The position numbers and the translations under genes are program-made. The notes below the pieces were generated by a model. The model did no database searches. It worked only from the letters and a program-made list of their open reading frames with translations, and was not told the DNA's origin. 64,000 nucleotides of DNA from Thermoplasmata archaeon (lineage in GTDB: Archaea > Thermoplasmatota > SW-10-69-26 > JACQPN01 > JAJPHT01), in the NCBI GenBank assembly GCA_034667685.1, contig JAXDQU010000118.1:17493-81492 (forward strand). The letters run 5' to 3'. Shown here in pieces: positions 5,027 to 31,024 of this stretch (position 1 is the stretch's first letter; every line of letters begins with the position of its first letter).

Positions 5027-5051
5027 GGGTTGCAGACACTCGTTGCGAGTG

Positions 5052-5077
5052 TGGGTCCGTCCAGATTTGAACTGGAG
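5052..5077 (-). repeat. tRNA 3'-end fragment (T-arm + acceptor strand), possible att scar
   Basis: CTCCAGTTCAAATCTGGACGGACCCA; 19/25 identical to the tRNA-Val 3' end, which lies 3 nt upstream. Confidence 0.75.
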
Positions 5078-5080
5078 GAA

Positions 5081-5154
5081 TGGGCTCACCCAGATTCGAA
5101 CTGGGGATCTTCTCCATGTCAAGGAGATGTCCTAACCAACTAGACCATGAGCCC
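5081..5154 (-). tRNA. tRNA-Val(GAC)
   Basis: GGGCTCATGGTCTAGTTGGTTAGGACATCTCCTTGACATGGAGAAGATCCCCAGTTCGAATCTGGGTGAGCCCA; cloverleaf, anticodon GAC. Confidence 0.97.
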
Positions 5155-10615: not shown

Positions 10616-10687
10616 GCCCCTCCGATGCCGGCGCCGGGTCATAAGCGAGACGCCCCGCGCGCGCGGCCCGTTGCAGCCAGACGCGCA

Positions 10688-10702
10688 GGCTCTGACCCTA
10701 AA
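10688..10702 (+). repeat. Left terminal inverted repeat
   Basis: Exact reverse complement of 29479-29493. Confidence 0.93.
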
Positions 10703-10710
10703 GTGACGAC

Positions 10711-10743
10711 TTCCGGGTTGCCCGGCTGATTTTCGGGTCGGCG
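10711..10743 (+). repeat. Left subterminal repeat block
   Basis: TTCCGGGTTGCCCGGCTGATTTTCGGGTCGGCG; direct-orientation match to 29441-29473, with TTTTCGGGTCGGCG identical. Confidence 0.8.
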
Positions 10744-10785
10744 TTCGGCGCGATGCCGGCTGCAAGAGTGCTGGCGGATGGTCCG

Positions 10786-10986
10786 CTACTTCTTGCCCGC
10801 CTTCTTCTCGGCGGCTTCTTCGTCGTGCTCTCGGAGGGCAGCCCAGGCGACTTCCGCGGCGTGGGTCACCGATGCAAACCGCTTCCCCGGCCCGGTGCGT
10901 TCTAAGACCCACCCCAGGATCGCGGGATCTGGGGTGATGCTGACCTTTCGCTTCTGGCCATGAGCAACCGCCTTTGCGCGCCCCAT
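10786..10986 (-). CDS. Ribbon-helix-helix (CopG/Arc-like) DNA-binding protein
   Basis: KRKVSITPDPAILGWV...RFASVTHAAEVAWAAL fits the RHH strand-helix-helix pattern; CTTAAA box about 26 nt upstream. Confidence 0.65.
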   Translation of the reverse strand: MGRAKAVAHGQKRKVSITPDPAILGWVLERTGPGKRFASVTHAAEVAWAALREHDEEAAEKKAGKK

Positions 10987-11159
10987 TGTCCCCCTTAGGG
11001 CGACAAGAGAGTTTAAGGGCCTGGGGGTCTCTGGCCCCCATGAAGCCCCGATGCCCGGCATCGGATTCACCTGCATCCCACTCGGGGGTGGGGCCCGCCT
11101 GGTGCGGTTTCTTCTGGCTGTTTTCTTCGCCGCACGCCCCCCTCTGCTGAGGAATAGGC

Positions 11160-11285
11160 ATGCCGTACCCCGGAACCGACGACTCGTTGATCACCGCGAA
11201 TCAAGCAGCGGAACCTTTGTCGCCACCGTCGCCATCTCCGCGCCCGTCTGAGGCGCGAAAGAAGCTCGCCGGGGTGGTCGCGTGA
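11160..11285 (+). CDS. Small hypothetical protein (41 aa)
   Basis: MPYPGTDD...KLAGVVA; GAGGA upstream; GTGA overlap with the next ORF. Confidence 0.4.
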   Translation: MPYPGTDDSLITANQAAEPLSPPSPSPRPSEARKKLAGVVA

Positions 11286-11608
11286 TCGACGACCCGGAGG
11301 ACCCGGCCAAGTTCGTCGGGGACCTCTGCTGGATCGGTTGCCCGCAATGCGAGGGGCCGGTGAACGCAAGGCCCGTTCGCGACCAAGCGGTGCGCGCGCT
11401 GCTCCTGCGAGTCGCTGACCTCATCGAGGGCGGGAAGGTCGCGCAGGCGGATTTCGTCAAGCGGCTGCGCATCATCGCCATCGACCTCTACGAGGGCATG
11501 CAGGCGGATCTCGCCTTCTCATGCTACCCTTTGGAGATGCTGGATGACTTTGACGCGGGCGAGGACGAACCGGAGGAAGAGGACGAGCCCGCGGGAGGGA
11601 GCGCATGA
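11282..11608 (+). CDS. Hypothetical protein with CxxC and acidic tail
   Basis: CWIGCPQCEG; ATGA overlap with the next ORF. Confidence 0.65.
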   Translation: MIDDPEDPAKFVGDLCWIGCPQCEGPVNARPVRDQAVRALLLRVADLIEGGKVAQADFVKRLRIIAIDLYEGMQADLAFSCYPLEMLDDFDAGEDEPEEEDEPAGGSA

Positions 11609-11925
11609 ACCAGCCCGAAGGCAGCCCCATTCCCGTGCGCCTGGATGCCGCGCGGTGTCCCAAGTGCGGCATCGGCCTGGACCTCGATCCGCTCCTCATG
11701 GCGCGCGACCTCTCCATCGTATCCGCCCTCCTCCAGGAACTCGGCATCGTGGACGACGCCTCCCGGCGCGTGAAGGAACTGCTGGACGGCCTCGCCCGCA
11801 AGAGCATCACCCTCTGCACCGACATTGGGCTCTACGGCTACGACCTCATCAGCGAAGAAGAGGAACCGGAACTACCACCGGGCCGCCGCGAGCCCGAGGA
11901 CGAGACCACCCCTGCTGATGACTGA
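11605..11925 (+). CDS. Hypothetical CPxCG protein with acidic tail
   Basis: RCPKCGIG; GGAGG SD-like site upstream. Confidence 0.65.
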   Translation: MNQPEGSPIPVRLDAARCPKCGIGLDLDPLLMARDLSIVSALLQELGIVDDASRRVKELLDGLARKSITLCTDIGLYGYDLISEEEEPELPPGRREPEDETTPADD

Positions 11926-12076
11926 ACCGCTTGAAGCGCTTCGAGCGCTCTTCTCAGACGCCGCAATCGCCCCCTCCCGAAGGCCCTGCCCCGAACCGGA
12001 CGGCGACTCATACCGCGGCGCACCTTCTGCTGTTCCGTGCTTGTGCTCTGTTGCAGACGCAATGGAGCGATTCTGA
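11918..12076 (+). CDS. Small hypothetical protein
   Basis: Overlaps both neighbours; TGATG coupling at 12074-12078. Confidence 0.35.
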   Translation: MTEPLEALRALFSDAAIAPSRRPCPEPDGDSYRGAPSAVPCLCSVADAMERF

Positions 12077-12339
12077 TGCCCAAAGCACGCCGCAAGCTCC
12101 GCACGGACTACCTCATCAACCTCAGCGTCTTGTCGAGCTCACCCGAAGCTGACCGACCCTGCGCCCAAATCGGAGTCATGACGCTGATCCCCCGGATCCG
12201 GATCGCTCACGGCATAGGCCAGAACTGCGTCACCTTCCGCTATGGCTACGACTTCAAGATCGAAGTGGACCGCATCATCGCAGAACGACTCCGAGACGAC
12301 TTGACCAAGTGGCTGGAAAAGAACCCCTGGTCCCGGTGA
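12076..12339 (+). CDS. Hypothetical protein
   Basis: MPKARRKLRTDYLINL...; TGATG coupling; GGAG upstream. Confidence 0.55.
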   Translation: MPKARRKLRTDYLINLSVLSSSPEADRPCAQIGVMTLIPRIRIAHGIGQNCVTFRYGYDFKIEVDRIIAERLRDDLTKWLEKNPWSR

Positions 12340-12535
12340 TTCAAGGCTGCTGCCGATTCAGCGAGCGATGGACTTCTCGGGAATTGGCGTGCGTCTCCAG
12401 CTGCAACCCCAACCGAGAACGAGTTGAAGCTCGGTCACGATTGGCCCGCCATTTCGGAACAGTCCGCGCAGTGTAGACCACTGAGAGTCGAAGGGAAACC
12501 GAGCATACACTTTGGCTCAGCCTGCCAGGCGAACC

Positions 12536-15346
12536 TCAGGACTCTCGTTCCTGCACTTGGATGGTCCAATGTTCGCCCAGACCCAACTCGGCCAAGACGC
12601 GCCGGAGATCACGCTCCAAGTTCTCGCGCTCCGTCGTGGGTGTTTCGACCGACACAGAGAGTGTGAGCGACACTTTCTGCCCTTTCTTCAACGTCGGGAT
12701 GAGCCGGACACCCAGTTTGTTCCACGCCTCAGGCGGAAGCGGTCCACTCATATCGATGACCGCCACAGCTCCAGCAGCGCTGTCTTGTCCGATGACGACG
12801 GACGGGGAGTCAGGGGGCGACTGAACCAGTCCGAAGACGACAGCCCCACGGTCTTGCGCGCTCGCATCAGCGGCTTTCGGAGGCGGCGCGGTCAGCACTT
12901 GTGCCTTCGTCTTCAGCAGGAGGAATGTACCTGAGTCGAAGACGACCTCCTCGCTTGGAACCAGTTCCTTGAACCAGACCCGCGTGAACGTCCCATCGTT
13001 CAACTGCCCAGATGCGAGGCCAAACTCCCCGCGCTCGACGAGTCGCGGGAGGTTCGCCTTGAGGGCGCCCTCCGGGTCGGGCAGGCGGGTGAGGCTCCCG
13101 TCAAGGAACGCTTTCCTGACACCCGCCAGGGGCCAAGCGCCGCTCTCCTTGAGAGCGGTGGGCCAGTTGCGTTCCAGATAGCCGGCCCCGACGCTGTCGC
13201 TGAGACGTCCTTCGCTTCGAAGGGCCGTCAGGATTCGGCCGGCAAGGCTCTCGTTGGCCGAGGAGTGTCCCGCTCCAAGGTCGATGACATGGATGCCGTC
13301 CGGGGCCTTGGGATCGTAGAGGAGGACGTACCGGTATGCGGCCCAGACTTCGTCCTTGACCGCGTCGCTCGCGTTGCGGACGTTGGCACTGACCTCGTTC
13401 CTTTCGTCGGCTTCGAAGTCGCCGCCGAGGATTCCCCGATTGATCTCCTCCTGAACGCGCTTCCACGCGAGGGAGACTTCGATCTTCTCTCGCAGGTCGA
13501 GGCCTTCCTTCTTGAGGACCCACACGAGCGCGCCGGGGTAGAGGCGTGCGTTCGCAGGACTGCGCTCGCGGGTCCACGAGGCCAGAAGCTTGCGTCGGGA
13601 CTCGCTGAAGGTGACGCCCGGTTCGATGACGACGGCCGTCAATCGGGGGAGGTCGGGGACTTCCGTGCTGTCGTTGGGGAAGAAGGCGAATTTGAGTTTG
13701 TCGTCCTTGGCGAACTCGGTCTCGATGGCCTTTCGCATGGCCTTCGTGACCTCGATCTCGTCCAGGCTCGCGCGTCGGTCGCCGACGACCTTCTGGAGCT
13801 TGGGCTTGAGGCCGAAACGGAAGCCGTCGCGTCCGACCTTACGGAGGTAGAACGCTCGGGATTCGATGGCGTTCGCGGCGCTGTCGATACTCGTCGTGTC
13901 CAGGCCCGGCTCGCCGAGCGCGAACCGAAGTTCGGGCAGGTGCGCGACCTTGTCGCCCGTCATCCCGCCCGACGACTCGAAGAGGATCGCGGCGGCGACG
14001 CGACGGTGGATCTCGGCAAGCTGGCCCTTCGCGTCTGCGTCGAGCGCGCGGGCGTGGCTGTGCTCGCCCGAGATATCAGAGTCGATGGCCGTGAGGAGAC
14101 GGTTCTCGCCAAGCTGTGCGAGCACGGCGCTCCGAAAACCGGAGTCGGCGAGGGGCGCGCTTCCGAGGCTGATGAACGCCTCCTTCCTCGCTTTCTCCCA
14201 CCCGTCGCGGTAGGCCCATGAGACCCACTTTGCGAGCATAGCCAGCGTGCCGCGGGTCTGTTGGTATTGCGGCAGGCTCTGCCACTTCCGCTGGAAAACG
14301 GAAAGCGTCGCGGGGTGGAAAGGATAGCACTTGCCGAAGCGACGCGCGAGAGCCTCGCGGGCCGACTTGTCGGTCGCTCCAGCCTCCACGACGGTCCATT
14401 CGGGGGGCAGCTGATTGCGGCGCTCGAAACACCAGTCGGCGTATTCCTCCGCCGCGTGCTGAATCTTCTTCTGCGTCCTGTCGTCGAAATCCTCGAAAAG
14501 ACGTCGGCGAACGATCTCGGCGATTTCGCCCTCCTCGTTCACCACGACACTGTTCCCGACGCGCTTGATGACCTTCTCCAATCTTGCTTGCCACTTGTCC
14601 TGCCACTGCTTCTCGAACTCGCCCATTTCGATTTCGCTGCGAGGCAAGGAAAAGATGGCTGCGCACCCCGTCGTGCTCGTGAGGCTTCGCGCGAGGTTGT
14701 CCGAGAACGCCAAGAAGTCGTCCGCGATCTTCTTGTGGCGGACGATGAGGTTGAGCGTCTCGTCGAACAGAATGAGGACGTGCCCGCCCGCGAGACGGTA
14801 GAGCGCTTCGAGCGTATCCGTGCCCGGCGGCGAGGTCTTTGCTGCCGGACCAAGCAGGCGCACGCCTTCATCGCCCGCAAGCTGGCGCGCGACGTCGATC
14901 CATGGGGTCTCGCGCCCTTCAGTGGGATCCCACGCATTGCCGACGAGGACGGCGACCTTGACGGAGGGCAGTTTGTCGATGCCCTCGGTCATGAGGAGCT
15001 TCTGTACGCCTTCGCTCTTGAGCGAGTCTTGCGGATTCTTCGTGAGGTGGTAGAGGCAGGTGAGCGTATGCGTCTTGCCGCCGCCGAACTGCGTGACGAG
15101 CGACATGACGGGGCTCGTCTCGCCTGTCTTGCCCGCAAGCCGGCGAAGCACCATGCCGAGGTTCTCGCGAAGCGCGCCCGTGAAGACGGTACGTGAGAAG
15201 AACTGCTTGGGGTCCGTGTAGTCCTTCGGCGAGTTCGGGTCGTTGCGGACGACCTGCTCCAAGCGGATGGCGAACTCGTCTGGATCGAACGAGCGGCCCT
15301 CGCGAACTTCCCGGCGAGGTTCTGCGATCTTATACCACGGTTCCAT
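12536..15346 (-). CDS. DUF499 AAA+ ATPase (BrxC/PglY-related)
   Basis: PWYKIAEPR...DEFA, QFGGGKTH (Walker A), LILFDE (Walker B), IVRRRLFE, YPFHP, QQTRGTL. Confidence 0.9.
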   Translation of the reverse strand: MEPWYKIAEPRREVREGRSFDPDEFAIRLEQVVRNDPNSPKDYTDPKQFFSRTVFTGALRENLGMVLRRLAGKTGETSPVMSLVTQFGGGKTHTLTCLYHLTKNPQDSLKSEGVQKLLMTEGIDKLPSVKVAVLVGNAWDPTEGRETPWIDVARQLAGDEGVRLLGPAAKTSPPGTDTLEALYRLAGGHVLILFDETLNLIVRHKKIADDFLAFSDNLARSLTSTTGCAAIFSLPRSEIEMGEFEKQWQDKWQARLEKVIKRVGNSVVVNEEGEIAEIVRRRLFEDFDDRTQKKIQHAAEEYADWCFERRNQLPPEWTVVEAGATDKSAREALARRFGKCYPFHPATLSVFQRKWQSLPQYQQTRGTLAMLAKWVSWAYRDGWEKARKEAFISLGSAPLADSGFRSAVLAQLGENRLLTAIDSDISGEHSHARALDADAKGQLAEIHRRVAAAILFESSGGMTGDKVAHLPELRFALGEPGLDTTSIDSAANAIESRAFYLRKVGRDGFRFGLKPKLQKVVGDRRASLDEIEVTKAMRKAIETEFAKDDKLKFAFFPNDSTEVPDLPRLTAVVIEPGVTFSESRRKLLASWTRERSPANARLYPGALVWVLKKEGLDLREKIEVSLAWKRVQEEINRGILGGDFEADERNEVSANVRNASDAVKDEVWAAYRYVLLYDPKAPDGIHVIDLGAGHSSANESLAGRILTALRSEGRLSDSVGAGYLERNWPTALKESGAWPLAGVRKAFLDGSLTRLPDPEGALKANLPRLVERGEFGLASGQLNDGTFTRVWFKELVPSEEVVFDSGTFLLLKTKAQVLTAPPPKAADASAQDRGAVVFGLVQSPPDSPSVVIGQDSAAGAVAVIDMSGPLPPEAWNKLGVRLIPTLKKGQKVSLTLSVSVETPTTERENLERDLRRVLAELGLGEHWTIQVQERES

Positions 15347-15358
15347 GTCTTTCTCCCC

Positions 15359-16780
15359 TTACATCCGCGTGGGCTTCCAGTTCATGATCTCGTCTTCCGT
15401 GCCGAGCGTCCCGTGGGCAGCGTCGAGCGTAGCGTGCAGGATGACCGCTTGCAGGGCTTGCGCGAGCGCAATTGCGCCCGCCTCTTCGATGGGGCCGACG
15501 CCCTCGTGCGTCCAAGAAGTACGGGCCTCGTAGGCTGCCTCGACTTCAGCCCAGTGCTTGTCGCACCACGTCTTGTCCAGTGCCTCGACGCATCCCCTAA
15601 GGCGGACCATGGCGGGCCAATCACCTCGGTCACCGCCCTGTTTCGGCGAGCCTTGCTTCTTGAGGAGCGCGGCAGTCGCGGTCACCAAGTCGCGGATGCG
15701 GCGACCGACCTCGACCCCGGCGGGCTTGGCCTCGCCTCCGGGGAATCGCTCATCGGCGACAAGCACGGGCTGATTCAGCGCAGAGCCCAGCCAATAGGTC
15801 GCTGTCGTGACCCGCTCGGCGGCGACAGTCTTCGGTCGTGCCGTGAGGAGAACGTTGAGCGCTTCGTGCCATCGTCGGGTCGGTTCCGCCCACGAGGCTG
15901 GAGCCGAGACACGCACTGGAAGGCCGGGGCCCGTCCCATCCGACCACATGGCAGGCCAGAACTCGCCGCTCGCGAAGCGCAGTCGCCAACCGTGACGGCG
16001 TTCAATGTTCTCACCCTTCAGCGCGACGACCTGTCGACTCCTCTCCTCGAATCGCCCACCTGAAAAGAACTTCAGGACCGCGAGCGCGAAATGGGCGTCG
16101 TCGCGAGCCTTCTGATATGCCGACTCCGGGGAGCCCCAAGCGCGGACATGGAGCACTGCGTTCTCGGAGTAGTCGTCCTTCTTCCCATTAGGTCGCAGTT
16201 CCGATTCGAAGATGAGCATGTTTGCGGTTGTCGCGCCCTTGTCTTGTTCGCTCTCGTTCGTGCGGGCGACCGCCGCTACCACCTCCCCGCAGTATCGTCG
16301 CCATTCTTCGCTCGTGAGGGATTTGAGGGTAGCAGTCCCGATGCGAACGACGCAGCCTTCCTCAACGGACACGTTGTCCAGCGGGATGACGAACTCATAC
16401 TCCCGGAGATGCCGCTCCAAGGTATCGATGAACTCTTCGAGTCGCCCTCCAAGGTCCGCGTGAGGCTCCTTGACCTCATCGGCAAAGACCCGCTCAAGGG
16501 CGTCAAGACGCGAGCGCGCCGAGAAATGATCACTGGCGATCTTCGACCACGGTAGTTCCGCATCGGCGCGGGCCAGCGTCGCGAGGTCGTGTGCCGTCAA
16601 GTAGCGGTATGGCCAATAAGGCGAAACGCGCACCGCCCCGCCGCTGTCAATCGCCCCAAACGGCGAGTCGATGGGGAGACCGTTCCTCAGCCGCCCACGT
16701 TCGTCTGCTTCACGCTGACGGACCGCTGCTGCGAGTTCTCGAATGATTTCAGCGGCGCTGGTCGTGTCCATCACCATCAC
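15359..16780 (-). CDS. ApeA-like HEPN domain protein (putative RNase effector)
   Basis: C-terminal YEARTSWTHEG (Rx4H); YEFVIPLDNV...IG segment; 4-nt overlap with the methylase stop. Confidence 0.65.
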   Translation of the reverse strand: MMVMDTTSAAEIIRELAAAVRQREADERGRLRNGLPIDSPFGAIDSGGAVRVSPYWPYRYLTAHDLATLARADAELPWSKIASDHFSARSRLDALERVFADEVKEPHADLGGRLEEFIDTLERHLREYEFVIPLDNVSVEEGCVVRIGTATLKSLTSEEWRRYCGEVVAAVARTNESEQDKGATTANMLIFESELRPNGKKDDYSENAVLHVRAWGSPESAYQKARDDAHFALAVLKFFSGGRFEERSRQVVALKGENIERRHGWRLRFASGEFWPAMWSDGTGPGLPVRVSAPASWAEPTRRWHEALNVLLTARPKTVAAERVTTATYWLGSALNQPVLVADERFPGGEAKPAGVEVGRRIRDLVTATAALLKKQGSPKQGGDRGDWPAMVRLRGCVEALDKTWCDKHWAEVEAAYEARTSWTHEGVGPIEEAGAIALAQALQAVILHATLDAAHGTLGTEDEIMNWKPTRM

Positions 16781-19700
16781 CTCGGCATCGCGAGCAGCAT
16801 GGCTTCCACGAGCCTGCGTTCATCCGTTCCCTTCGGGTAGAGCGCGGCGAGCGCGTTCGCGAGGCGCTCGAAGTCCGGCCCGCGCCGCTTCTCGTCCGCC
16901 AAGAGCGACCGCAGCGCCGCCGTCTGTCCGCTCTGCTGCAGGAGCATGGCGGCGTGGACGCGGTCGAGCGTCGTGACCTGCTTCGAGCGGTCGCCCGCGG
17001 CGTCGTCCCCGACGGTCGCCTTGGCCTTCTTTGCGCCCTTTTTCTTCGCAGGCGCGCCGGAGGGCGGCGGCTCGTCCGGGAAGAGCGTGAGCTGCACGCC
17101 GCCGCGCAGGTTGCTGCTTTCGAGTTCCCCAACAGCCGCTTCCGCGCCGCCCGTGCCGAATAGCTGCTTCATGCGCTCGCTCACGGGGAGGAGGCGCACG
17201 ACGCCCTTGTCCGTCTCCGAGATCCGACCTTCCCACGTCTCCAGGTGGATGCCGAGCGGCTGCGCGAAGCGGCGGACCACGTCGTAGGGCAGGGAGAAGC
17301 CCTTCTTCTTGGCCGACTTCCCGCTGCCTTCCTCGCCGTCGTCGGCTTCTTCGGCGGCTTCTTCCGCATCCGGGCCGCCACCGCTGTTCCCATCCTCGCT
17401 CGCGGTACCTTGCAGCGCCCACAGGAAGAGCGCCGTCAAGCGCGCATCCTCTTCGAGCGCCGTGCCCGCGCCGCCGGTCTTGCCCAAGACCTGCTCCAAC
17501 GCGAGTCGGCCCACGACCTCCCACACCTTCGCGAGGTAGCCCTGCTTGTAAGGCTCCGACGCCGTGGGGTCGCCACCGAGCGGAATCTCGCGATCCTCCG
17601 CGTCCACGACCTTCGAGTAGCGGCTGTAAACCTCCATCGCCGGGCCGATGCACGCAAAAACGAGATCCGCGCCGCGCACGCCTTCGTTGTCGAGGCGATC
17701 CATCCACGCGCGGACTTTAATCGGAAGCTCGCGCGCCACGTTGGCCCAATCGCCCTCTGTGGCTGCTTCCTCGCGAGGTCGACAGATGAGATGGATGCTC
17801 GTTGCCAGAGCAGCGGATTCGCGAGCGCGTAATCGCGTGGCCATCTCGGTCGCGATGGGCCATGAACCTGTGATGACCCACCCGTTCTTAACCATACCCG
17901 ATAGCAGAGCCTCCCAGCCCTCAGTTGTCTTGTGGGCAAAGACCACGCCCCCTACTCCATCCTCTCGAAGGACGCGGCGTCCCTCGGAGAACGCCTTTGC
18001 CATAGTCTTCTCGAAGAACACCCCATCCTTTGGCGTCCCATCTACCTCGCGCGCCTCGTCCATGCGAGCCTCGCGACGCTTTGGAGTCAGGACGTTGGAA
18101 GCATCGTCGCGATCTCTGAGCAGAGGGTGGCCGGGAAGGTCCCGCTTCAGCCAGATGTAGAATACATCTGAGAGGTCCGAATAAGGCACGGCGTCGTAAT
18201 AGGGTGGATCAGAGAACCAAACGGAGGCGCTTGCATCCGGAAGTGGGGACGCAGTCGCGTCTTCCTGCTCGACGCGGCCGGGGCGATCGCACCACGTGGC
18301 AAGTTGCTCAACGCACTGTGCGACCACTTCAACGCCATCCGAGAAGCTGCCGGTCGAATCAGAAATGGGCACAGCCTCGGCGAAGTCCCACTCAAGCGAG
18401 AGGGCTTGCCTGACGAACATATGCTCGACCTTCTCTTGGTCGGCTTGATAGCGCCAACTACAGAGGGAAGATGATCGGCTGGCGACGCGATCCAGAACGA
18501 GTGCGAGAAGCTCCTTCACATTTGGCTCCGCGCCGGATTCTCGGACCACCTCACCAAGCGTCGCAAGCGTAAGCTTTTGCCGGGAGGTGTAGAGCTTCCC
18601 GAAATCGTCGATACCGTACAGGTGAAAACGGAATGGTGAGTTCTTCGCCATCTTCGCTTGCACGACTGGCTCGTTCGGGAGCGTCGGGATCCCGGGTACA
18701 ATAAATGTTGAGCGCAGCTTGGCTGCCGCCGCCTGTGCGAGTTTAACCGCTTGATAGTCTCGTTCGCTGGCGAGGCGATACTGGCGACCGGTCGCGCTGG
18801 GAGTTAGACAAACCACCGCCAGAAACCGGGCTCCGCCGATTCGGCGGTCCTGCGGATCGAACCGCACCTCTGCACCGCCCGCTTGGTCCCGAAGTTGAGG
18901 TCTTACTCGCTCGACTCCAAGGGTCACACCGCAAGATGGGCAGGTTGCCTTTCCTCCCGCAACAGTTCCCTTCGCAACGTCGCCCTCCTTCTTCGGCTCG
19001 AAGATCTCAAGCTGTCGTTCCGCGCCGGGCTTGGCGCTCTCAACGAAGCGCAATGCGCGTCGACGGCTCGCCTTCTTGCACAGCCACATTGACCGGATGA
19101 GAGGGATCTCTGCGCCGCAGTTCGGGGATTCACACCGCACGGTACGTGCCCAAAGGTAGGCGATGGGCCGTGAGCCGTCCGGATCTATGGGATAGAAGTC
19201 TTCGAGCCGCTTGTCTGCAGTCGATCGGATTGATTGAGCGACATTCCTCAGTTCGTGTGCAAGCTCGGGGCCAGCGCGAGGAATGTTCTCAAGGAGGTTC
19301 TTGAGAATAATGCAAGCCACAGGATTGAGGTCAGAGGCGAACGTGTCGCATCCCAATCTCAGGGCTTCGAGCGGGATGCTTCCGCCACCTGAGAACGGAT
19401 CCACAACCAGGGGAGCTTCATCGCCGTGGGCTGCGCGTACAAGCGTTCGGGCTGCTTTTAGATAGGCGTTTTTGGCGCTGTTGTTCCAATCAGCAAAGTC
19501 GCCGATGAACTTTAGGAGCGCTTCGCGCAGGTCCACGTCCTTCGGTCCGATGCCCGTGAGCGTGCGCGGGAGCGCGGCGCGCGCCTTCTCCTTGAAGTCG
19601 GTGGGGCATGCGGGGTCGCACGGGTCCGGAAGGAGGAGCGCCATGAGGACCGCGCGCGAGGACGCAAGCGGGCGACGCGCCCACCACAGGTGAAGCGTGG

Positions 19701-19806
19701 ACGGGTGCCCGTGCCGGATGCTCTTCTCGCGGGCCGCGTGGCGGCTCACTGTCGCGATGGGGAAGTCCACCTCGGCGAGGCGCTTGCACTCTCTCGGGAT
19801 CGTCAT
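16777..19806 (-). CDS. DUF1156 amino-DNA methyltransferase with Zn ribbon
   Basis: TLHLWWARRPL, DPFSGGGSIPLEA (SAM binding), CESPNCG/CPSCG, SDPPYYD (catalytic), FAHKTTEGW. Confidence 0.92.
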   Translation of the reverse strand: MTIPRECKRLAEVDFPIATVSRHAAREKSIRHGHPSTLHLWWARRPLASSRAVLMALLLPDPCDPACPTDFKEKARAALPRTLTGIGPKDVDLREALLKFIGDFADWNNSAKNAYLKAARTLVRAAHGDEAPLVVDPFSGGGSIPLEALRLGCDTFASDLNPVACIILKNLLENIPRAGPELAHELRNVAQSIRSTADKRLEDFYPIDPDGSRPIAYLWARTVRCESPNCGAEIPLIRSMWLCKKASRRRALRFVESAKPGAERQLEIFEPKKEGDVAKGTVAGGKATCPSCGVTLGVERVRPQLRDQAGGAEVRFDPQDRRIGGARFLAVVCLTPSATGRQYRLASERDYQAVKLAQAAAAKLRSTFIVPGIPTLPNEPVVQAKMAKNSPFRFHLYGIDDFGKLYTSRQKLTLATLGEVVRESGAEPNVKELLALVLDRVASRSSSLCSWRYQADQEKVEHMFVRQALSLEWDFAEAVPISDSTGSFSDGVEVVAQCVEQLATWCDRPGRVEQEDATASPLPDASASVWFSDPPYYDAVPYSDLSDVFYIWLKRDLPGHPLLRDRDDASNVLTPKRREARMDEAREVDGTPKDGVFFEKTMAKAFSEGRRVLREDGVGGVVFAHKTTEGWEALLSGMVKNGWVITGSWPIATEMATRLRARESAALATSIHLICRPREEAATEGDWANVARELPIKVRAWMDRLDNEGVRGADLVFACIGPAMEVYSRYSKVVDAEDREIPLGGDPTASEPYKQGYLAKVWEVVGRLALEQVLGKTGGAGTALEEDARLTALFLWALQGTASEDGNSGGGPDAEEAAEEADDGEEGSGKSAKKKGFSLPYDVVRRFAQPLGIHLETWEGRISETDKGVVRLLPVSERMKQLFGTGGAEAAVGELESSNLRGGVQLTLFPDEPPPSGAPAKKKGAKKAKATVGDDAAGDRSKQVTTLDRVHAAMLLQQSGQTAALRSLLADEKRRGPDFERLANALAALYPKGTDERRLVEAMLLAMPR

Positions 19807-23200: not shown

Positions 23201-23678
23201 CGGGCGTGACGATAAGGACGCGCTCGGCAAGGCCCCGGAGTTTCAACTCCCGAAGGAGAAGGCCCGACATGATGGTCTTCCCCGCGCCCGCATCGTCCGC
23301 TAGGAGAAAGCGGATCGTCGGGAGTCTGAGCATGTGGTCATAGACGGCCTCAAGTTGGTGCGGGAGGGGATCCACCCGGCTGATGCTCAGGCCAAAGAAG
23401 GGATCGAATTCGTAGGCAATCCCGAGCGAGTAGGCGCTGATCCCAAGACGCAGGAGTGTGCCGTCGCCGTCATAGGTCGCGGTTGCCGAGCGGATGGTGA
23501 CGCGAGCGAGCTGGTCGCGCGTGAGACGCACGCGGGTGAAGCGCTCGGAGCGTCGACCTGAGAGGCCAAGAGTCCAAGCATCAGGACCATCCGGTGTGAC
23601 CGTCTCAACTCGCATGGGCTCGTTGAAGAGGTCGCCCTCGATGACTTGGCCGGCCTCGATACGAACGAACTGCTCCAC
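20274..23678 (-). CDS. SNF2-family helicase with C-terminal DUF3883 nuclease-like domain
   Basis: LLADDAGAGKT, IIDEAH, LTATPH, EGINLQ, EQRMGRIHRYGQ; GYDITS...IEVKG...LTPNE. Confidence 0.92.
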   Translation of the reverse strand: MEQFVRIEAGQVIEGDLFNEPMRVETVTPDGPDAWTLGLSGRRSERFTRVRLTRDQLARVTIRSATATYDGDGTLLRLGISAYSLGIAYEFDPFFGLSISRVDPLPHQLEAVYDHMLRLPTIRFLLADDAGAGKTIMSGLLLRELKLRGLAERVLIVTPANLTFQWQRELKDRFGEQFVVLRGGELRSQFGVNPWKENKQILTSLDLAKREDVLPGLKQVEWDLVIIDEAHRMSASSEDKKSERYRLGELLRDHAGNILLLTATPHKGDPVNFTLFLQLLDRDAFAHVRSIEEAMKNGVAPFYLRRTKEAMKFFPEQGADGLWRARNLFTKRIPRTASFNIDGDEYALYASVTNFVRRMSHRAAAQAQDDPRARATGFLMALYQRRLASSTYALRQSLERRADLLEKKLSRADDFLKDNPTDIPDADEMEEMEAGEREAMEKKVEAVVLTQNRQFISEEVSQLRQLALQAQDVMNTGEEAKLARLEHLLTDEGFIRNKDQRLLIFTEFKDTLDYLVETLRKWGLTVGFIHGGMKPGSRDEPGTRLFMEQQFREGAVQILVATEAAGEGINLQFCNQMVNYDIPWNPNRLEQRMGRIHRYGQTKDCLIFNFVATNTIEGKVLERLLERLQEIRDALDSDSVFNVVGEVFPAAHIERVFRDYYAGKLGDAEVEDAVLEPATEQKFRQIATNTLEQSLAKRTLNLPMLLERRAIAQERRMVPETIARFLVDTSNLANLSLKPLASMPHTYDPGPTPPELRRFETRAEWRLPSVATRYPRITTDRLVAEKERSLEWVTPGHPLFEALRLHTWEAAQPHFANGAAFFSLEHQAPARLDFYRARVVDGTGRTVHERLFAVEVAENGDARLRDPTALGDLMPAKKPADLPKVATLPEPTDFLNREPLAAFLSEVSMERIAEVDRVAKHVEIALTELISKEDDKIGRFALAKESGVEGAAGFLAQAENRHAELMSRRDLRRAELAKQRHLTLQGVERLTNVLILPHPDRDRPDIRNLRQDKETEEIAMRYVIEHERSQGREVFDVHEKNLGYDITSIDLKSGELRLIEVKGLGASEGNILLTPNEYRIAQDRRDCYWLYVVTGCKQPTQNLKPIKDPASKPWIGVSKVQHYTLSTRELEGGR

Positions 23679-24194
23679 CGGAAATCACCCTTACCGCGCT
23701 TGATTGCCAGAGCAGATCGAGGCGCGGGGCCTTTCGGCCCGGAAAGTTCGCATGTCTCTTTAAACCCGACCCCCTGAAGCGGGGCAGGGGTTCAGCAGGG
23801 GCTCCGACCATTTACCCCGCGGGCAAGAACAACCAGCCGCACTCTACGGGGCGCCCGGGCTCGCGCCGTTGCCGCCGAAGGCCCCCCCAGCCGAGGCGGC
23901 CATGAAACGGGTGGAAATAACTTTGGGCGTATTTCACTGAAACAGCGCTTGTCAAGCCGCGCGGCGCGATGCGCACACCGCGAACTGGTACCGGCGGGAA
24001 GAGGTAGGAATCAGCGCGGATCCGCCACGCGGCTTCATCCAGCGCCTTCCCGCACGCATACTGGCGCCACCATTCCGCCGCAGGGTGTCACTCAAGTCCG
24101 GGTTCGTCGGGATCACTTGAACCAGGAGCGGCGGGGAGTATTCCCTGCGCTCGAGATGCTCCGATGACCTTTCGCCCGGACGCGGCCGAAGTCG

Positions 24195-24947
24195 CTATGA
24201 AGTGGTTTCTCCGTCCTCTTCGTCGTTCCGAATCTGACGATCGCGGGGTAGGCCATAGGTCGCGCGGTAGGATTCGACGCTGCCGTGGATCATGGGGTTG
24301 TACGGTGGCCGCTTCACAAGGTCGACCGGACGACGCGCCGCCGAGCGTGCAGATCCGGGGACACGGGCAGCGGCAAAGCCCAGGCGTAGGAGGAACGCCT
24401 CAGGCGGCTGCCGCAGTTCCTTCACCAACGCATGAAACAGGAGACTCGGCGGTCGGGACGCGGACTTCTGCGGTCCCGCTGGCGGTGCTGCGGGCGGTCT
24501 CGTAGCGCGACGACGTGAGACCCTGTTCGTCAGAGGAAGATCTGGAAAAGGCCCCAGCGTCTCGACGTCCACGAGCGGCTCCTGGGCAACGGGCGACGGC
24601 CACGCCATTTCAGAAATGAACGGCGGGGGCTCCCCAGGATCGACCATGAGCTGATGCACAATCAGGTCTGTCGGGGTGAGCCGCTCGCTGGGAACCGTCC
24701 AGGGCGAAGGTAGAGCGCGTTTGGCGGTTGGGAGGTTCGCTGGGTTCTTTGCGCACTTGCCCTGGTGAGGGGGGAGCTTGTGCGGTTCGAACTTCAGGCC
24801 GCACCAGCGGCAGGGCGGGTCGGGGTTGTCGTCGCAGCGCTGCTTGTGCCGCCACATCGCCATGTGGTTCTTGCACGTCCAGCCGCAATGGGGACAATCT
24901 TCGGGCTGCGTGAGATCGCGCGGCAGCGCACATGCCATCTCAGGCAT
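24195..24947 (-). CDS. Protein with two tandem C2HC zinc fingers and a Pro-rich tail
   Basis: CPHC-x12-HKQRC and CRWC-x11-HQGKC. Confidence 0.55.
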   Translation of the reverse strand: MPEMACALPRDLTQPEDCPHCGWTCKNHMAMWRHKQRCDDNPDPPCRWCGLKFEPHKLPPHQGKCAKNPANLPTAKRALPSPWTVPSERLTPTDLIVHQLMVDPGEPPPFISEMAWPSPVAQEPLVDVETLGPFPDLPLTNRVSRRRATRPPAAPPAGPQKSASRPPSLLFHALVKELRQPPEAFLLRLGFAAARVPGSARSAARRPVDLVKRPPYNPMIHGSVESYRATYGLPRDRQIRNDEEDGETTS

Positions 24948-25471
24948 GTCCTACTTGTGGGCGAGAGGGGTCTTGAAACTCGCGCCCTGGATGAGAGATG
25001 GGCGCGCACGCCCGCGCTCCATTGGCTTTCTGCTTTGTCCTCTTTTTCCCGGGAGAGGAACGTTCCTGGCCCCGTGCTGGGAACGGTACTGGGTCCGAAT
25101 GTTCATAATCCACCTGACGCACACTCGCTCAGAGACAAGTTTGGCATCCGCCCTTTCTTCTGCACGATGAGGAAGCGCGCGAGAGTGCTCCGGCGCTCGT
25201 GCGTCCACCCCCGCGAGCCAAGCGCCGCGGGCGGGAGTCGGTGTTGATTCGTCCGCCGACGATCGGCCGCTCCGGCGGCTGATTTCCTCCGCAGCGTTGG
25301 GCGCGGGTGCCCTGATCGACCCGACGAGAACCCCCACGCTCACGGAAGCTGATCACGATGATGCACTTCACGTACGCGCCCGAGCGGCAGCTTTCCCCCG
25401 CTCCGTGCGCAACCAACGTTCCTGCGCAGCGGAGTGACGCCGCTGCGGCAGCGATTGGAGGTTGACGCCAC

Positions 25472-25612
25472 ATGGCGAACCGTTCCATCGAAGGAGACGC
25501 GCTGCTGGCGGTCCTGACGCAGCAAGTGGACCGCCGCGGTCGATCCGCCCCCGTTCTCTTCCCCCCGCCGAACGTCGCATTTGAGCTCCTCGATCCGCAG
25601 GGGAAGGTCTGA
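25472..25612 (+). CDS. Small ORF (46 aa) coupled to the transposase
   Basis: GGAGGT SD upstream; MANRSIEGD...QGKV; TGATG overlap with the transposase start. Confidence 0.5.
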   Translation: MANRSIEGDALLAVLTQQVDRRGRSAPVLFPPPNVAFELLDPQGKV

Positions 25613-26988
25613 TGGCGCGGCATGTCGCGAAGTCCCGCCCGCCAGGGCTCCCCATTGCAGAAATGGCTTCCACCGCGGACCTCGGTGTCCATGCCGTCCA
25701 CGCGCGCTTGGGCAGCGACGAGGACGCGCCCGAGATCCTCATCGAGCCCGGCCGCTTCAACCGCGCCGTGAAACTGGCAGAAAAGCGTGGGCAGATCATG
25801 CGGCAGCGCGACTTCTACCGCGTCCGCAGCCAAAGCGGCGGCGGGAGCTACATGGTCGAGGAACAAGGCCGCTTGTGGCTCTGCGAGTGCGCCGACGCGT
25901 CCCCGCTCCGCCCGTGCCAGCATGTCTTGGGCGTCCTCCTCTACCTTGACGTGCTGCCCTTCCCGCACGAGGTAGGGGAGCCCGTCAAGCCGCAGCCGGG
26001 TGGCGGGGTCGATTGGGCCGCCTATGTCAAGGCGGAGCGGTCGCTTGGCGAGCAGATGCCTCGTTTCGCGTGGCGCCTCTTCGAACAGCTACCTACACCG
26101 GAGCGCTTCGGCCGCGGCCGTCCGCCAATACCGCAGACCGACAGCCTGCTCTGCGCGCTGATGTGGAGCATCAGCCAGAAGAACGCGCGGCAAGAGCAAG
26201 CGACACGCGACCGTCTCTTCGAAGACGGACTGCTGAGTCGCACGGTCGCACCGAACGACGTGAGCCGAACGCTCGTGGACAAGGCGACCACACCGCTGCT
26301 GCAAGAAGCCCTACGGCGAAGCCGGGAGCCATTCGCCGCGGTTGACGCGGAATCCTCGCCCTTGACGCTGGACGTCATGGGAGACACCTTCGCCGTCGAT
26401 TCAACCGGCTTCACGCCCTCCAGGCGCGGCCACTACAACACAAGCAAGCATGGGCCTTCAACGCCGCTGCCCTGGCTAAAGTGCCACCTGATGATCTCGA
26501 CCAAGGCGCACTTAATCACGAGCGCGCGGATTACGAGCAGCCACGGCAAAGGAACCGGCGACTCATCGCAATTCGCCCCGCTCCTGACGGAAACGGCGGA
26601 AGAGTTCCCCGTTGGCGTAATCGTGGGCGACGGCGCGTATGCCAGCCGCGCAAACGTCACCGCGGTTCGGGACGTCGGCGCGAAGCCCTTCTTCCGCTTG
26701 GCGAAAAACACGATTTCAAAACAGCTTGGCGCACCTGGATGGGCGGACATGGTAGCGTTCTTCACGCTGCACCGCGCCGAGTTCGACCGCATCTATCACA
26801 GGCGGTCACTCGTGGAGAGCGTCAACAGCGCCATCAAGCGCCGCTTCGGAGAATCGTTGAGGAGCAGGACCGCCACGAGCCGCGTCAACGAGTTGCTGTG
26901 CAAGCTCCTGGCCTACAACCTCGTGGTCCTTGTGCAGCAGCTCCACTTCCTGCACGCAGAGGACGAGTGGTTGGACCGCATCCTCTGA
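25612..26988 (+). CDS. DDE transposase (IS4/IS5 superfamily, IS903-like) with N-terminal SWIM zinc finger
   Basis: CEC-x7-CQH (SWIM), GRGRPP, AVDSTGF (D1), WLKCH, GDGAY (D2), YHRRSLVESVNSAIK (YREK motif). Confidence 0.92.
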   Translation: MARHVAKSRPPGLPIAEMASTADLGVHAVHARLGSDEDAPEILIEPGRFNRAVKLAEKRGQIMRQRDFYRVRSQSGGGSYMVEEQGRLWLCECADASPLRPCQHVLGVLLYLDVLPFPHEVGEPVKPQPGGGVDWAAYVKAERSLGEQMPRFAWRLFEQLPTPERFGRGRPPIPQTDSLLCALMWSISQKNARQEQATRDRLFEDGLLSRTVAPNDVSRTLVDKATTPLLQEALRRSREPFAAVDAESSPLTLDVMGDTFAVDSTGFTPSRRGHYNTSKHGPSTPLPWLKCHLMISTKAHLITSARITSSHGKGTGDSSQFAPLLTETAEEFPVGVIVGDGAYASRANVTAVRDVGAKPFFRLAKNTISKQLGAPGWADMVAFFTLHRAEFDRIYHRRSLVESVNSAIKRRFGESLRSRTATSRVNELLCKLLAYNLVVLVQQLHFLHAEDEWLDRIL

Positions 26989-27027
26989 TGCGGCAGGACT
27001 TTCAAGCGGTACGAGCGATGCGGCTGC

Positions 27028-28017
27028 GTGGAAGGCGCGGACGAGGCGAAGGCGCTTCTGAAGGGCGTCGAGTGGTTCTATCATTGGGAAGACGAGCGGG
27101 GCGAGCGGCGGCGCTTGGAGGTGTGGTATCGCCTGCGCGTGGGCTCGCAGGCGCGGCGGCAGGTCGTCGTGCCGTGGAGCGATTTGGAGGCGAGCGTGCG
27201 TCGTCGCCTAGATGCTCTCGTGGCGTGGGTCATGCCGCAGCTTCCCAAGCCCGCATCCTACGAGATCATGGGCCGCCGTCACGAGCCGCGCCTGAGCTTC
27301 GACTACCTCTTCCTGCACGTTCACGGCGAGACAGACCACAAGGACCCCTTGACGGTGGGTTCCTGCGTGTGGACCGCACCGGGCAAGAACGACCCGCAGC
27401 GCGATCAATATTGGAGGGCGGACCAGCTCGCGGGAGAGGTTGAGGAAATCCGCCGCAGCCTCGTTCCCCTCGCGTGGCGCGTCGTCTTGGCCGATGTGGC
27501 CCAAACGCACGAGGTTCCGCCAAAGGAAGCCCGACCCTATCTTCCGCTGCTCGTGTACGTCGCCTATCGCGCCCCCACGGGGGAACGCCTCGCGCGAAGC
27601 ATCACGGACTACCTTTCCGCGCGGGGGCTCTTGCCGTGGTTCGATCAGGAAGTCATCGGCACAGGCGATTCTCTCACCGAAGCGATGCGGCGCGGCATCA
27701 TGGATTCCAGCGCGGCCGTCGTCATCTTCACCCCCGACTTCAAGGACGGGAAGAACCTGCGGCTGGAAATCGAGCAGATCAACGCGCGGCTGCAACGCGA
27801 TTCCGACTTCAAGCTCATCCCGGTGCGCGTCGGCCTCAACCATGATGAGCTTCCGCCGCTGCACGGGAACCCCCGCTCGGAATACGTCCACGATGCCGAT
27901 GATCCCAAGTTGACCGACGTCCTCGTTAACGTCCATCGCGGAATCCTTGGCATGGCCCGCAAGGAAGGCGAGGGAGGAGCCGAAGGCTCAATCGACGTTG
28001 CGGGTGCGCAACGATAG
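27028..28017 (+). CDS. TIR-domain protein with unknown N-terminal domain
   Basis: VYVAYR...WFDQEVIGTGDSL...SSAAVVIFTPDF...LRLEI (catalytic Glu position)...LIPV. Confidence 0.85.
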   Translation: MEGADEAKALLKGVEWFYHWEDERGERRRLEVWYRLRVGSQARRQVVVPWSDLEASVRRRLDALVAWVMPQLPKPASYEIMGRRHEPRLSFDYLFLHVHGETDHKDPLTVGSCVWTAPGKNDPQRDQYWRADQLAGEVEEIRRSLVPLAWRVVLADVAQTHEVPPKEARPYLPLLVYVAYRAPTGERLARSITDYLSARGLLPWFDQEVIGTGDSLTEAMRRGIMDSSAAVVIFTPDFKDGKNLRLEIEQINARLQRDSDFKLIPVRVGLNHDELPPLHGNPRSEYVHDADDPKLTDVLVNVHRGILGMARKEGEGGAEGSIDVAGAQR

Positions 28018-28044
28018 GACGCGCCGCTTGGTGGCGGCGGATCG

Positions 28045-28974
28045 GTGGAGGTCGCGGCAAACTACCCGCGACGTAAGCCCGGGCAGGGTGAAATCGAAAG
28101 CTTGACTCTCCCCGCTTGGGCTGCCGCGGTCTTGCAGGCGGACTTCTCGGAATCCACCTTCGGATTCGGCGTGGCACACGCGATCCAGCGCGTCGCTGAC
28201 ACCAGCAAGATGGGGCCACCCATCTTCCCCTCCCTGCGGCAGGAGAAACGCCTCGGCTTCGACGTGGCCTTCCCCGGCCTTCACTTGTTCCTTCAGTTCA
28301 AGCTAAGCCAACGCATGACGCGGGCGAACGCACTCCAATGGAAAAGCCACTGGAACAAGGAATACCTCCGCTTCGACCTGCGCCACAAGTCGCCCCGCGA
28401 CTCGCAGCACAACCTCCTCGCGCGCTTCAGCGCGTCGTTTCCTTACTTCATCGTCCGCTACTGCGCACCCCTGTTCGTCTCAGGACGCGACTTCACGACG
28501 TACCACGTCCGCCGGACTCTGTTGGAAAACTGCCTGTGGCTCGACCCCGCCCGCCTCGGGACGCTGAAGGACCGTGATCGGCATTGCGTGACGTTCCTCC
28601 GCGACGCCTCCGGCGTGACCTACCACCGGCACTCGGAAGAAGAAACGGGCGGACGAGCCGCCTTCGCGGAAGAGGACTTGCGGGGCGCCATCGCACAGCA
28701 CACTGAAACGCACCCGCTGGAGCGCCGCCGCATCGACGCAAGCGAAATCCGGCGCGTCCACGGTACGCTTCTTCAGATGGCGCAGGAGCGGTATCACCAG
28801 CTCGCAGAAACGGGCACGCGAGCCGAGCGGAAAATGGCAACCGAACGCCTCTCAGTCTTGGGCGAGCCTCGGACGGACGTGAAGCCGCGGGAGCTTGTGG
28901 AACGGATTTCGCTCCTGGCGAGCGTGGAGCTTGGCGCCGAGTGGATCATCCTCCCCGACACCGGGGAAGCTTAG
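28045..28974 (+). CDS. Putative PD-(D/E)xK (D...QxK) nuclease
   Basis: FSE, PSLRQEKRLGFDV, LFLQFK, QH, VRYCAP. Start may be TTG near 28132. Confidence 0.6.
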   Translation: MEVAANYPRRKPGQGEIESLTLPAWAAAVLQADFSESTFGFGVAHAIQRVADTSKMGPPIFPSLRQEKRLGFDVAFPGLHLFLQFKLSQRMTRANALQWKSHWNKEYLRFDLRHKSPRDSQHNLLARFSASFPYFIVRYCAPLFVSGRDFTTYHVRRTLLENCLWLDPARLGTLKDRDRHCVTFLRDASGVTYHRHSEEETGGRAAFAEEDLRGAIAQHTETHPLERRRIDASEIRRVHGTLLQMAQERYHQLAETGTRAERKMATERLSVLGEPRTDVKPRELVERISLLASVELGAEWIILPDTGEA

Positions 28975-29050
28975 GGGTGATTCGGTCGCCGGGCAGCCGA
29001 CCGCTTGCCCCCAAGCAGGCTTTTAGACCCGATGTTTTCCCTTCTGCGTC

Positions 29051-29281
29051 GTGGCGAGCGCGGAGGCGCGGGTATCCACTGAGTCCGGGCGAGCGCACGC
29101 CCACGCCGTCAGCATCCTGGCGCGCGAAGCCGTCGCCCTGGCGCGCGAAATCCAGCACGGCCTTCCCCACCCCGACCCCGCCGTGGAGCACGCCGCCGCC
29201 CTCGCCCGTGAGACGGCCGCGACCCTGGAAGTCCTCTGCCAAGGCCCCGCCTGCCCCTCCGAAGCGTACCGGGAAGCCTAG
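29051..29281 (+). CDS. Small hypothetical helical protein
   Basis: Good GC3 codon bias; last ORF before the right TIR. Confidence 0.35.
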   Translation: MASAEARVSTESGRAHAHAVSILAREAVALAREIQHGLPHPDPAVEHAAALARETAATLEVLCQGPACPSEAYREA

Positions 29282-29440
29282 CCGCGATCAGCGCCGCCAG
29301 CGTCGCCTTGGCCGTCGCCAAGCAGGCCCTCGCGGACCAACGCAACCCGCCCCCGACGCCGACCTGCCGGCTTCAGGTGGAATAGCCCCCGGCGCGCCGC
29401 CCCCTGGGGGCACCCATGAACCTTTCCACTCCATCGGGGC

Positions 29441-29473
29441 TTTCGGGTCAGCCCGGCGTTTTTCGGGTCGGCG
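29441..29473 (+). repeat. Right subterminal repeat block
   Basis: TTTCGGGTCAGCCCGGCGTTTTTCGGGTCGGCG; two TTTCGGGTC units 20 bp apart. Confidence 0.8.
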
Positions 29474-29478
29474 GTGAG

Positions 29479-29493
29479 TTTAGGGTCAGAGCC
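29479..29493 (-). repeat. Right terminal inverted repeat
   Basis: TTTAGGGTCAGAGCC followed by the TSD AGACGCGCA. Confidence 0.93.
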
Positions 29494-29554
29494 AGACGCG
29501 CAGGAGAATGCTTATGGCCGCCCCAGGTTACTCCGCGGCCCCGGAGGCTGCTCC

Positions 29555-30958: not shown

Positions 30959-31024
30959 CACGGCCTGAGGCCCCAAGGGCCGCGATCGCACCTTTGATCC
31001 GTTACCGGACCCATCGGGGAGCCA

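Follow-up and report, generated by a model that had tools for sequence, protein, structure and literature searches.

Within the 64-kb stretch of archaeal chromosome analysed here (the window, to which all coordinates refer unless another locus is named), positions 10688-29493 very probably constitute one non-composite DDE transposon, of the unit or “transporter IS” type (IS, insertion sequence), lying between genes. The element measures 18,806 bp between its outer ends and, judged by sequence comparison, is the largest delimited member of an apparently undescribed family related to the IS903 group. The earlier note on this DNA had proposed a giant non-composite transposon mobilising defence cargo in an archaeon, with perfect terminal repeats, IS903-like ends and one SWIM-DDE transposase; the existence of 17 relatives of the same design now supports that proposal, movement itself being presumed. 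The window comes from an assembly of 3.48 Mb in 124 contigs that is 99% complete; below, the loci of relatives are given L-numbers and the other contigs of the window genome C-numbers.

The two ends of the element are made up of the following features:

10679-10687, unstranded: left copy of the target site duplication, AGACGCGCA (read from the sequence; repeat scan)
10688-10702, plus strand: left terminal inverted repeat, GGCTCTGACCCTAAA, 15 bp (sequence; motif search)
10731-10739, minus strand: subterminal copy of the core GACCCGAAA, in the opposite orientation to the left terminal copy; a probable extra transposase-binding site (exact-match search)
29441-29469, minus strand: two subterminal copies of GACCCGAAA (29441-29449 and 29461-29469), oriented as the right terminal copy (exact-match search)
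29479-29493, minus strand: right terminal inverted repeat, the exact reverse complement of GGCTCTGACCCTAAA (sequence; motif search)
29494-29502, unstranded: right copy of the target site duplication, AGACGCGCA (sequence)

Every 9-bp direct repeat bracketing the transposase gene was considered and the 15 bases adjacent to each copy were scored for inverted complementarity. Exactly one of the 17,603 repeat pairs reached 13/15 or more, and this was the element's own ends, at 15/15; when the inverted-repeat test was displaced by 20-100 bp (n = 7) 0 or 1 pair reached the same level. By a hand estimate the chance of a perfect 15/15 pair is about 1e-4 per window (0.29^15 x 17,603). The letters of the window are also compatible with a boundary shifted by 1 bp, giving a 14-bp repeat and an 11-bp duplication, as had been pointed out earlier; since all 17 relatives show repeats that start with GGC or AGC together with 9-bp duplications, the boundary is placed so as to give a 15-bp repeat and a 9-bp duplication. 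A search of the window for the GGCTCTGACCCTAAA 15-mer with up to 3 mismatches returned two matches, both of them the ends, and therefore no internal copy of the repeat lies beside the transposase gene. The G+C content of the element is 64%, against around 72-74% in its flanks.

The ends are further marked by the core of the repeat. GACCCKAAA has five exact matches in the 64 kb, none of them further than 55 bp from the ends: two are terminal, one is inverted at the left and two are direct at the right. The ends of the relatives are built in the same manner, with a terminal repeat whose inner core recurs 1-3 times within about 60 bp. These copies resemble multiple transposase-binding sites, and it is as such that they would be expected to act. 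Elsewhere in the window genome, two 1-mismatch matches to GGCTCTGACCCTAAA (C12:130-144 and C17:10529-10543) were treated as chance because they lack subterminal repeats and because a control with the reversed pattern also gave 2 matches. A separate site at C106:128046 reads GGCTCTGTTCCCGAA followed by two inverted core copies within 50 bp and resembles an end of the L006/L066 subtype; as neither a partner end nor a second transposase was found, its sequence may be that of a solo transposon end.

The transposase gene lies 2,505 bp from the right end:

25612-26988, plus strand: SWIM-DDE transposase, 458 amino acids, intact (Pfam, NCBIfam and alignment)

The DDE_Tnp_1 domain (PF01609) occupies residues 258-438 (E 3.3e-18) and among NCBIfam models IS5_2 (NF033579) matches best. 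When the protein is aligned with 11 homologues (58-66% identity), the catalytic residues D263, D340 and E402 are invariant, as is the YREK signature (Y395-R398-E402-K409, with the spacing Y(2)R(3)E(6)K). The N-terminal residues C91, C93, C102 and H104 (CxCx8CxH) are invariant in the same alignment and have the spacing of a SWIM-type zinc finger. The Pfam SWIM model (PF04434) gave no match at E ≤1e-2 on the window protein itself; it does match a 65% identical orthologue, at 22.8 bits against a cut-off of 19.6, and is precomputed on many distant homologues. No second transposase, integrase, recombinase or resolvase was found by domain scans of the nine large and four small open reading frames (ORFs) of the element (Pfam, NCBIfam and PADLOC for the large ones, Pfam for the small ones at 10786-12339). 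The single transposase claimed previously is therefore the only such domain among these ORFs, and its gene is single-copy in the 3.48-Mb assembly.

The strongest evidence that these ends and this enzyme belong together comes from related elements. Seventeen further complete elements were delimited around homologous transposases of 28-66% identity; in every one the repeats are related in sequence and start in the GGC/AGC..TTG manner, and the 9-bp duplication is exact. Apart from L006, described below, most of them came from two scans. The first covered 66 loci with homologues of 27-57% identity (24 of them taken with 1.5-kb flanks from genomes of the host phylum, the other 42 from metagenomes) and looked for GGC- or AGC-starting inverted repeats of at least 13/15 around the gene with an abutting exact 9-bp duplication; 11 loci gave 10 distinct complete elements. 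In the second, 16 archaeal loci were extended to around 10 kb per side, which gave 6 complete elements, 5 of them new. One further element, L097, was recognised by motif; its repeat matches at 11/15 and its duplication is GTCTTTTTT. At many of the other scanned loci the family terminus is present 50-100 bp past the transposase and the second end falls beyond the fetched DNA or contig; in some no end was seen. The relatives range from 2,386 to 15,119 bp and none of the 17 is a plain IS of 1-2 kb. The earlier note had named the occurrence of homologues in ordinary 1-2 kb IS with unrelated repeats as the finding that would speak against it; what was found is elements of 2.4-15.1 kb with related repeats. 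With its 18.8 kb the window element is the largest of the 18, 3.7 kb above the next largest and around four times the median size.

The closest accessible homologue is in L006, from a genome of the same genus (L036 and L065 are this same element, which was counted once). Its transposase is 65-66% identical to that of the window, and its 15,119 bp lie between perfect 16-bp repeats (GGCTTTGTTCCCAAAT), with CCGAACCCC as the 9-bp duplication. The public record of L006 is labelled as a “Proteobacteria bacterium” metagenome-assembled genome; this genome has no Sigma70_r2 match and is placed in the genus of the window genome, and the label looks wrong. The sequence of the terminal repeats tracks the enzyme: the repeats of close homologues (window, L006, L066 and L113) share GGCT(C/T)TG..CC.AAA and those of distant homologues share GGCTTTGCAC(A/C)(A/T)AAA. 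A profile built from close homologues found 373 cluster representatives at E ≤1e-30 among 1.84 billion, and 25 of the 401 sampled genomes of the host phylum contain a homologue at E ≤1e-20.

An all-against-all BLASTP of the ORFs of 12 elements revealed no accessory gene common to the family besides the transposase, and the only other module shared is that of small left-end ORFs, found in the window element and L006. Defence-type cargo is present in at least 6 of the 18 elements, the window included; the five relatives concerned carry restriction-modification or other defence genes, namely Upx-like and Dsr1-like proteins (L006), a methyltransferase and a XamI-type endonuclease (L113), MmeI-like enzymes (L124 and L097) and an Eco57I/N6-type methyltransferase protein (L071). 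Cargo of other kinds comprises a C39-like peptidase (L111), a TrkH transporter (L120) and a NosD-like protein (L061), and nested IS are seen in L069 (4656-5573, an IS1595-type transposase within the cargo) and L076 (3855-6750). In the remaining six elements only proteins without a recognised function were seen among the ORFs examined. As at most a few ORFs per element were examined, these tallies are minimum counts. Two individual loci show rearrangements: an IS3-type (rve) insertion interrupts the SWIM-DDE gene of L076, and in L121 a right-type and a left-type end stand in inside-out order 5.8 kb apart (positions 961 and 6769), next to the same 9-mer, CCCACCAAA, a layout which could be the product of an inversion or of intramolecular transposition.

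Members of the IS903 group are normally about 1 kb long and free of passengers, as was measured here for one control. This control, an ISAha1-like copy on an Acinetobacter radioresistens plasmid (L108), has 1,039 bp and one 310-amino-acid ORF with no passengers; it starts with GGCTTTGTTGCACAAAC, ends with its inverse and is flanked on both sides by the 9-bp duplication GATAGAAGG. The GGC start is common to the window (GGCTCTGACCCTAAA), its relatives (GGCTTTGCAC...) and the control (GGCTTTGTTGCAC, with the terminus GGCTTTG), as is the 9-bp target duplication. Both enzymes possess a DDE_Tnp_1 domain with Y-2-R-3-E-6-K and have NF033579 as their best match, and their catalytic domains are 27% identical over around 210 residues (E 2e-16). 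On the basis of this match the terminus, duplication length and catalytic core can be called IS903-like, in agreement with what had been claimed. In contrast, the window enzyme has 458 amino acids with an N-terminal extension bearing the SWIM-type motif where the control has 310, and the window element, with its subterminal repeat arrays and cargo, extends over 18,806 bp where the control is compact. Among 72,556 plasmids no record covered 80% or more of the window transposase; the protein matches were to ordinary IS5-family transposases, over residues ~212-436 and at 24-33% identity, one of them being the control, which is annotated as ISAha1-family.

Besides the transposase the element carries at least nine ORFs:

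10786-11076, minus strand: small ORF, 96 amino acids as listed, part of the left-end module kept in L006; no family match, a regulator role being a guess
11282-12339, plus strand: three small conserved ORFs (11282-11608, 11605-11925 and 12037-12339), two of them with CxxC pairs
12536-15346, minus strand: HmaC, DUF499 AAA+ ATPase (PADLOC PDLC00662, E 1.6e-87; Pfam and NCBIfam agree)
15359-16780, minus strand: 473-amino-acid protein inside the Hma operon, no family (nearest Atlas clusters unnamed and mostly bacterial)
16777-19944, minus strand: HmaB, DUF1156 DNA adenine methyltransferase (PADLOC PDLC00661, E 7e-108; Pfam and NCBIfam agree)
20274-23678, minus strand: HmaA, SNF2/DEAD helicase with a C-terminal NOV_C domain (PADLOC PDLC00659, E 1.1e-171; Pfam agrees)
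24195-24947, minus strand: 250-amino-acid ORF, no family (a 49-residue stretch is 47% identical to an ORF upstream of the L006 transposase)
27028-28017, plus strand: 329-amino-acid protein with a C-terminal TIR domain, a candidate defence effector (TIR_2, E 1.3e-13; weak PADLOC matches to ThsB/TIR effectors)
28045-28974, plus strand: 309-amino-acid protein, no family (nearest Atlas clusters unnamed)
28941-29477, plus strand: 178-amino-acid ORF running into the right end; no family match, and it may not be a gene

All three components of the Hma system are recognised by PADLOC, adjacent and co-oriented on the minus strand (12536-23678). Together with the TIR-domain gene they would form a defence cargo, whose anti-virus activity is predicted from the profile matches. 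With one transposase, no internal repeat copies, HmaA, HmaB and HmaC and a TIR_2 domain, the description of the element as non-composite with a defence cargo holds; the words “multi-system defence island” used before hold only in part, for one recognised system (Hma) and one TIR-domain candidate. The left-end module (10786-12339, about 1.7 kb) is found at the same offset in L006, with 80-89% protein identity between the small ORFs, and these small conserved ORFs have no Pfam match. Relative to Hma as a PADLOC candidate defence system, all of HmaA, HmaB and HmaC are present; the differences are the extra 473-amino-acid gene between HmaC and HmaB and the location on a transposon in an archaeon.

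If the element is an active transposon, its movement would be expected to proceed as follows. The transposase would bind the 15-bp terminal repeats and the subterminal GACCCKAAA copies and cleave at the GGC termini, and the ends would then be joined to target DNA cut with a 9-bp stagger, the repair of which would produce the AGACGCGCA duplication. The chemistry would be cut-and-paste, by analogy with IS903. Everything between the ends would travel along, that is, the left-end module, the Hma system, the TIR-domain gene and several genes of no recognised function. Given the perfect repeats and duplication, the insertion is probably recent.

Several observations count against an active transposon of this kind. 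A clean empty site with a single 9-mer (a junction reading ...GCAGCC-AGACGCGCA-GGAGAATG...), for which the earlier note had proposed to look, was not found: searches with flanking DNA in 40 relatives found only the same-genus genome G003, where the left flank is 82% identical and is joined to the genes from window position 34309 on, so that a larger block (~10651-34309) is absent and around 500 bp of unrelated DNA stand in its place. In sequencing runs X1 and X2 both junctions are spanned by contigs free of differences, and no contig connects 10687 with 29503; it may be that both runs represent the source sample, and rare variants are lost from contigs. Their own genome has one copy each of the element and its transposase, and thus offers no evidence of movement. 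The orientation of the subterminal cores relative to the shared internal genes is opposite in the window and L006, with the core repeats at homologous right-end positions being direct in one and inverted in the other. Finally, the window transposase scores 112.3 bits on NF033579, below the cut-off of 140 bits; scores elsewhere are 114.3 (L006), 116.6 (L074), 140.4 (L037, borderline) and 408.5 (the ISAha1-like control). Two other results concern the same question. In the contigs of four runs there are 14 joints, none of which falls at an end of the element or has a side longer than 36 letters; this is neutral on mobility. In the reciprocal test for an empty site of L006 the left flank was not significantly similar at C108 (score 77, against 60 +/- 9 for shuffles). 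As no empty site was found, mobility is inferred.

These observations could mean that the element is a genuine family member which is now an immobile relic, either because a 17-kb cargo is beyond the capacity of the enzyme or because the end architecture has been rearranged. Its single copy, with no empty site or second insertion seen, would fit this explanation, as would a length 3.7 kb beyond that of the next relative and about four times the median and the flipped orientation of the subterminal repeats relative to the genes when compared with L006. However, the repeats and duplication are free of mismatches, and the transposase ORF is unbroken and keeps every catalytic and zinc-ligand residue; further, large size recurs in the subfamily, since the 15.1-kb L006 element also has perfect ends. 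In addition, short contigs from X3, a soil metagenome of a different study, are 94-100% identical to parts of 10807-27711 (27305-27711 without a difference), which suggests that the element circulates. A relic is considered unlikely, though it is the most serious of the alternatives.

Far less probable is that the SWIM-DDE gene is a mere passenger between the ends of a different element, one that is mobilised in trans. The distance of 2.5 kb between the transposase and the nearest end, and the lack of repeat copies beside the gene, would be consistent with such an arrangement, but all 17 relatives have their transposases between GGC-type repeats with 9-bp duplications, and these repeats vary with the relatedness of the transposases; the catalytic domain is moreover related to the IS903 group, whose terminus and duplication length the element shares, and scans of its ORFs brought up no further transposase or recombinase domain. 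The large size and island-like cargo might equally point to a composite transposon, or to an island that a site-specific recombinase had integrated, a reading which we regard as just as improbable: the genome has a single transposase gene, a second IS copy is lacking, the 15-mer is confined to the two outer ends, Pfam, NCBIfam and PADLOC scans of the large ORFs gave no integrase, recombinase, Tn3 or Tn7 domains, and the repeats at the boundaries, being inverted and accompanied by a short duplication, are unlike direct attachment (att) sites. That the repeats and 9-mer arose by chance within an ordinary horizontally acquired defence island is effectively refuted by the relatives, and, although the GC-rich window contains many imperfect inverted repeats (399 pairs of at least 12 bp) and the displaced controls can yield a pair at 13/15 or more, a 15/15 repeat abutting a 9/9 direct repeat is expected at only the 1e-4 calculated above, begins with the family-wide GGCT.TG and has a core which recurs three more times, only at the ends.

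The preferred reading, a unit transposon which carries its cargo between IS903-type ends, can be set beside other known vehicles. Transporter IS (tIS) are typically known as bacterial elements with one or a few passengers. By their published definition (PMC9330008), tIS have IS-type ends and a single transposase, and lose their passengers only by transposition-independent events; the IS-type ends, single transposase and passenger genes inside the ends are features which the window element has in common with tIS and unit transposons (PMC9330008). It differs in its cargo of about 17 kb and its archaeal host, and in that passengers are apparently the rule of the family, all 17 relatives being longer than 2.3 kb. 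The other comparison is with Tn7-like transposons, which are carriers of variable anti-phage cargo with several transposase-binding repeats at their ends and a 5-bp duplication. In both cases a large DDE transposon would serve as a vehicle for defence cargo between fixed ends; unlike them, the window element has no TnsA, TnsB, TnsC or target-selector genes, relies on a single IS5-type enzyme and has a 9-bp rather than a 5-bp duplication, and it does not belong to the Tn7-like family. The family was not described in the full-text literature searched, and to that extent the earlier statement that it is not a named family stands; ISfinder and TnCentral lay outside this search, and members may be listed there as IS5 or orphans.

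The archaeal nature of the host, which had also been claimed, was supported by 4 TBP domain matches above the Pfam cut-off in the window assembly, in which neither Sigma70_r2 nor tmRNA was found above cut-off, the named control genomes behaving as expected in each of these searches. A thermosome subunit gene at 36489-38108 (803 bits against a cut-off of 400) lies within the window, and thus the contig itself is archaeal and not only the bin. The site of insertion is intergenic. Immediately to the right of the element are two genes, a signal-peptide gene from 29556 and a 1095-amino-acid ORF (31025-34312), which are also missing from the syntenic locus of G003; this genome has 45-64% similar genes on another contig, and the G+C content falls to 59-64% at 30-32 kb of the window. 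From the absence of these two neighbouring genes (29503-34312) in G003 it follows that the element sits in an already variable spot. At the other side, the first 4,000 bp of the window are of low G+C (58-62%) and adjoin tRNA-Ala (4953-5026, minus strand) and tRNA-Val (5081-5154, minus strand); positions 1-5154 may be another island beside a tRNA. A tandem array of the hexamer GCTGAG lies at 9510-9605, and near-identical arrays are present on at least nine other contigs of the same genome, with weaker ones in relatives.

The sequences next to the duplications provide a lead to the choice of target, namely that insertion may occur at the upstream edge of promoters. In the window a TTAT motif lies 10 bp beyond the right copy of the duplication, followed by GGAGG at 29541-29545 and the ATG of the signal-peptide gene at 29556. 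In L006 the duplication is followed by CAAGCGCTTTTATAG, and the window's own genome has CCCAAGCCCTTTTATAC at the orthologous promoter; the right flank of L006 is orthologous to C108 of the window genome from within 2 bp of the duplication, with 84% identity over 3 kb. L115 reads GCAAGCGTTTTAAAG at the same offset. Hosts with AT-rich DNA are uninformative in this respect. At two archaeal loci another element of the family, with a different repeat, ends exactly at the left 9-mer (L110 8873-8891, which is L037 407-415, and L061 1404-1412), giving the order end of A, 9-mer, B, same 9-mer, with a TATA-like box adjacent. Because the second element ends exactly at the left copy of the duplication, the same 9-mer has apparently been used twice.

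A wider proposal can be made tentatively, and we hold it with somewhat less than even confidence: the window element and its relatives would be an undescribed, archaea-rich, IS903-derived cargo lineage, distinguished by its SWIM finger, subterminal arrays and obligatory passengers, which would be a principal vehicle of archaeal defence and restriction-modification genes, would move at least 17 kb, and would read the upstream edge of promoters, inserting a fixed few bp before the B recognition element (BRE)/TATA box at a 9-mer that can be used again. IS, miniature inverted-repeat transposable elements, casposons and integrative elements have been described in archaea; to our knowledge few if any large cargo-bearing unit transposons have been. 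Through a family that carries entire defence systems between IS903-type ends, archaea would have a concrete means of exchanging defence genes, with Hma and a TIR-domain gene in the window, Upx/Dsr1-like genes in L006 and type II and MmeI-like restriction-modification in others as examples. Since it is simple, with one enzyme, short ends and a defined 9-bp duplication, it might also become a tool for the insertion of large payloads in archaeal genetics, and a preference for promoter edges, if true, would make it possible to examine how archaeal promoter architecture is read by a transposase.

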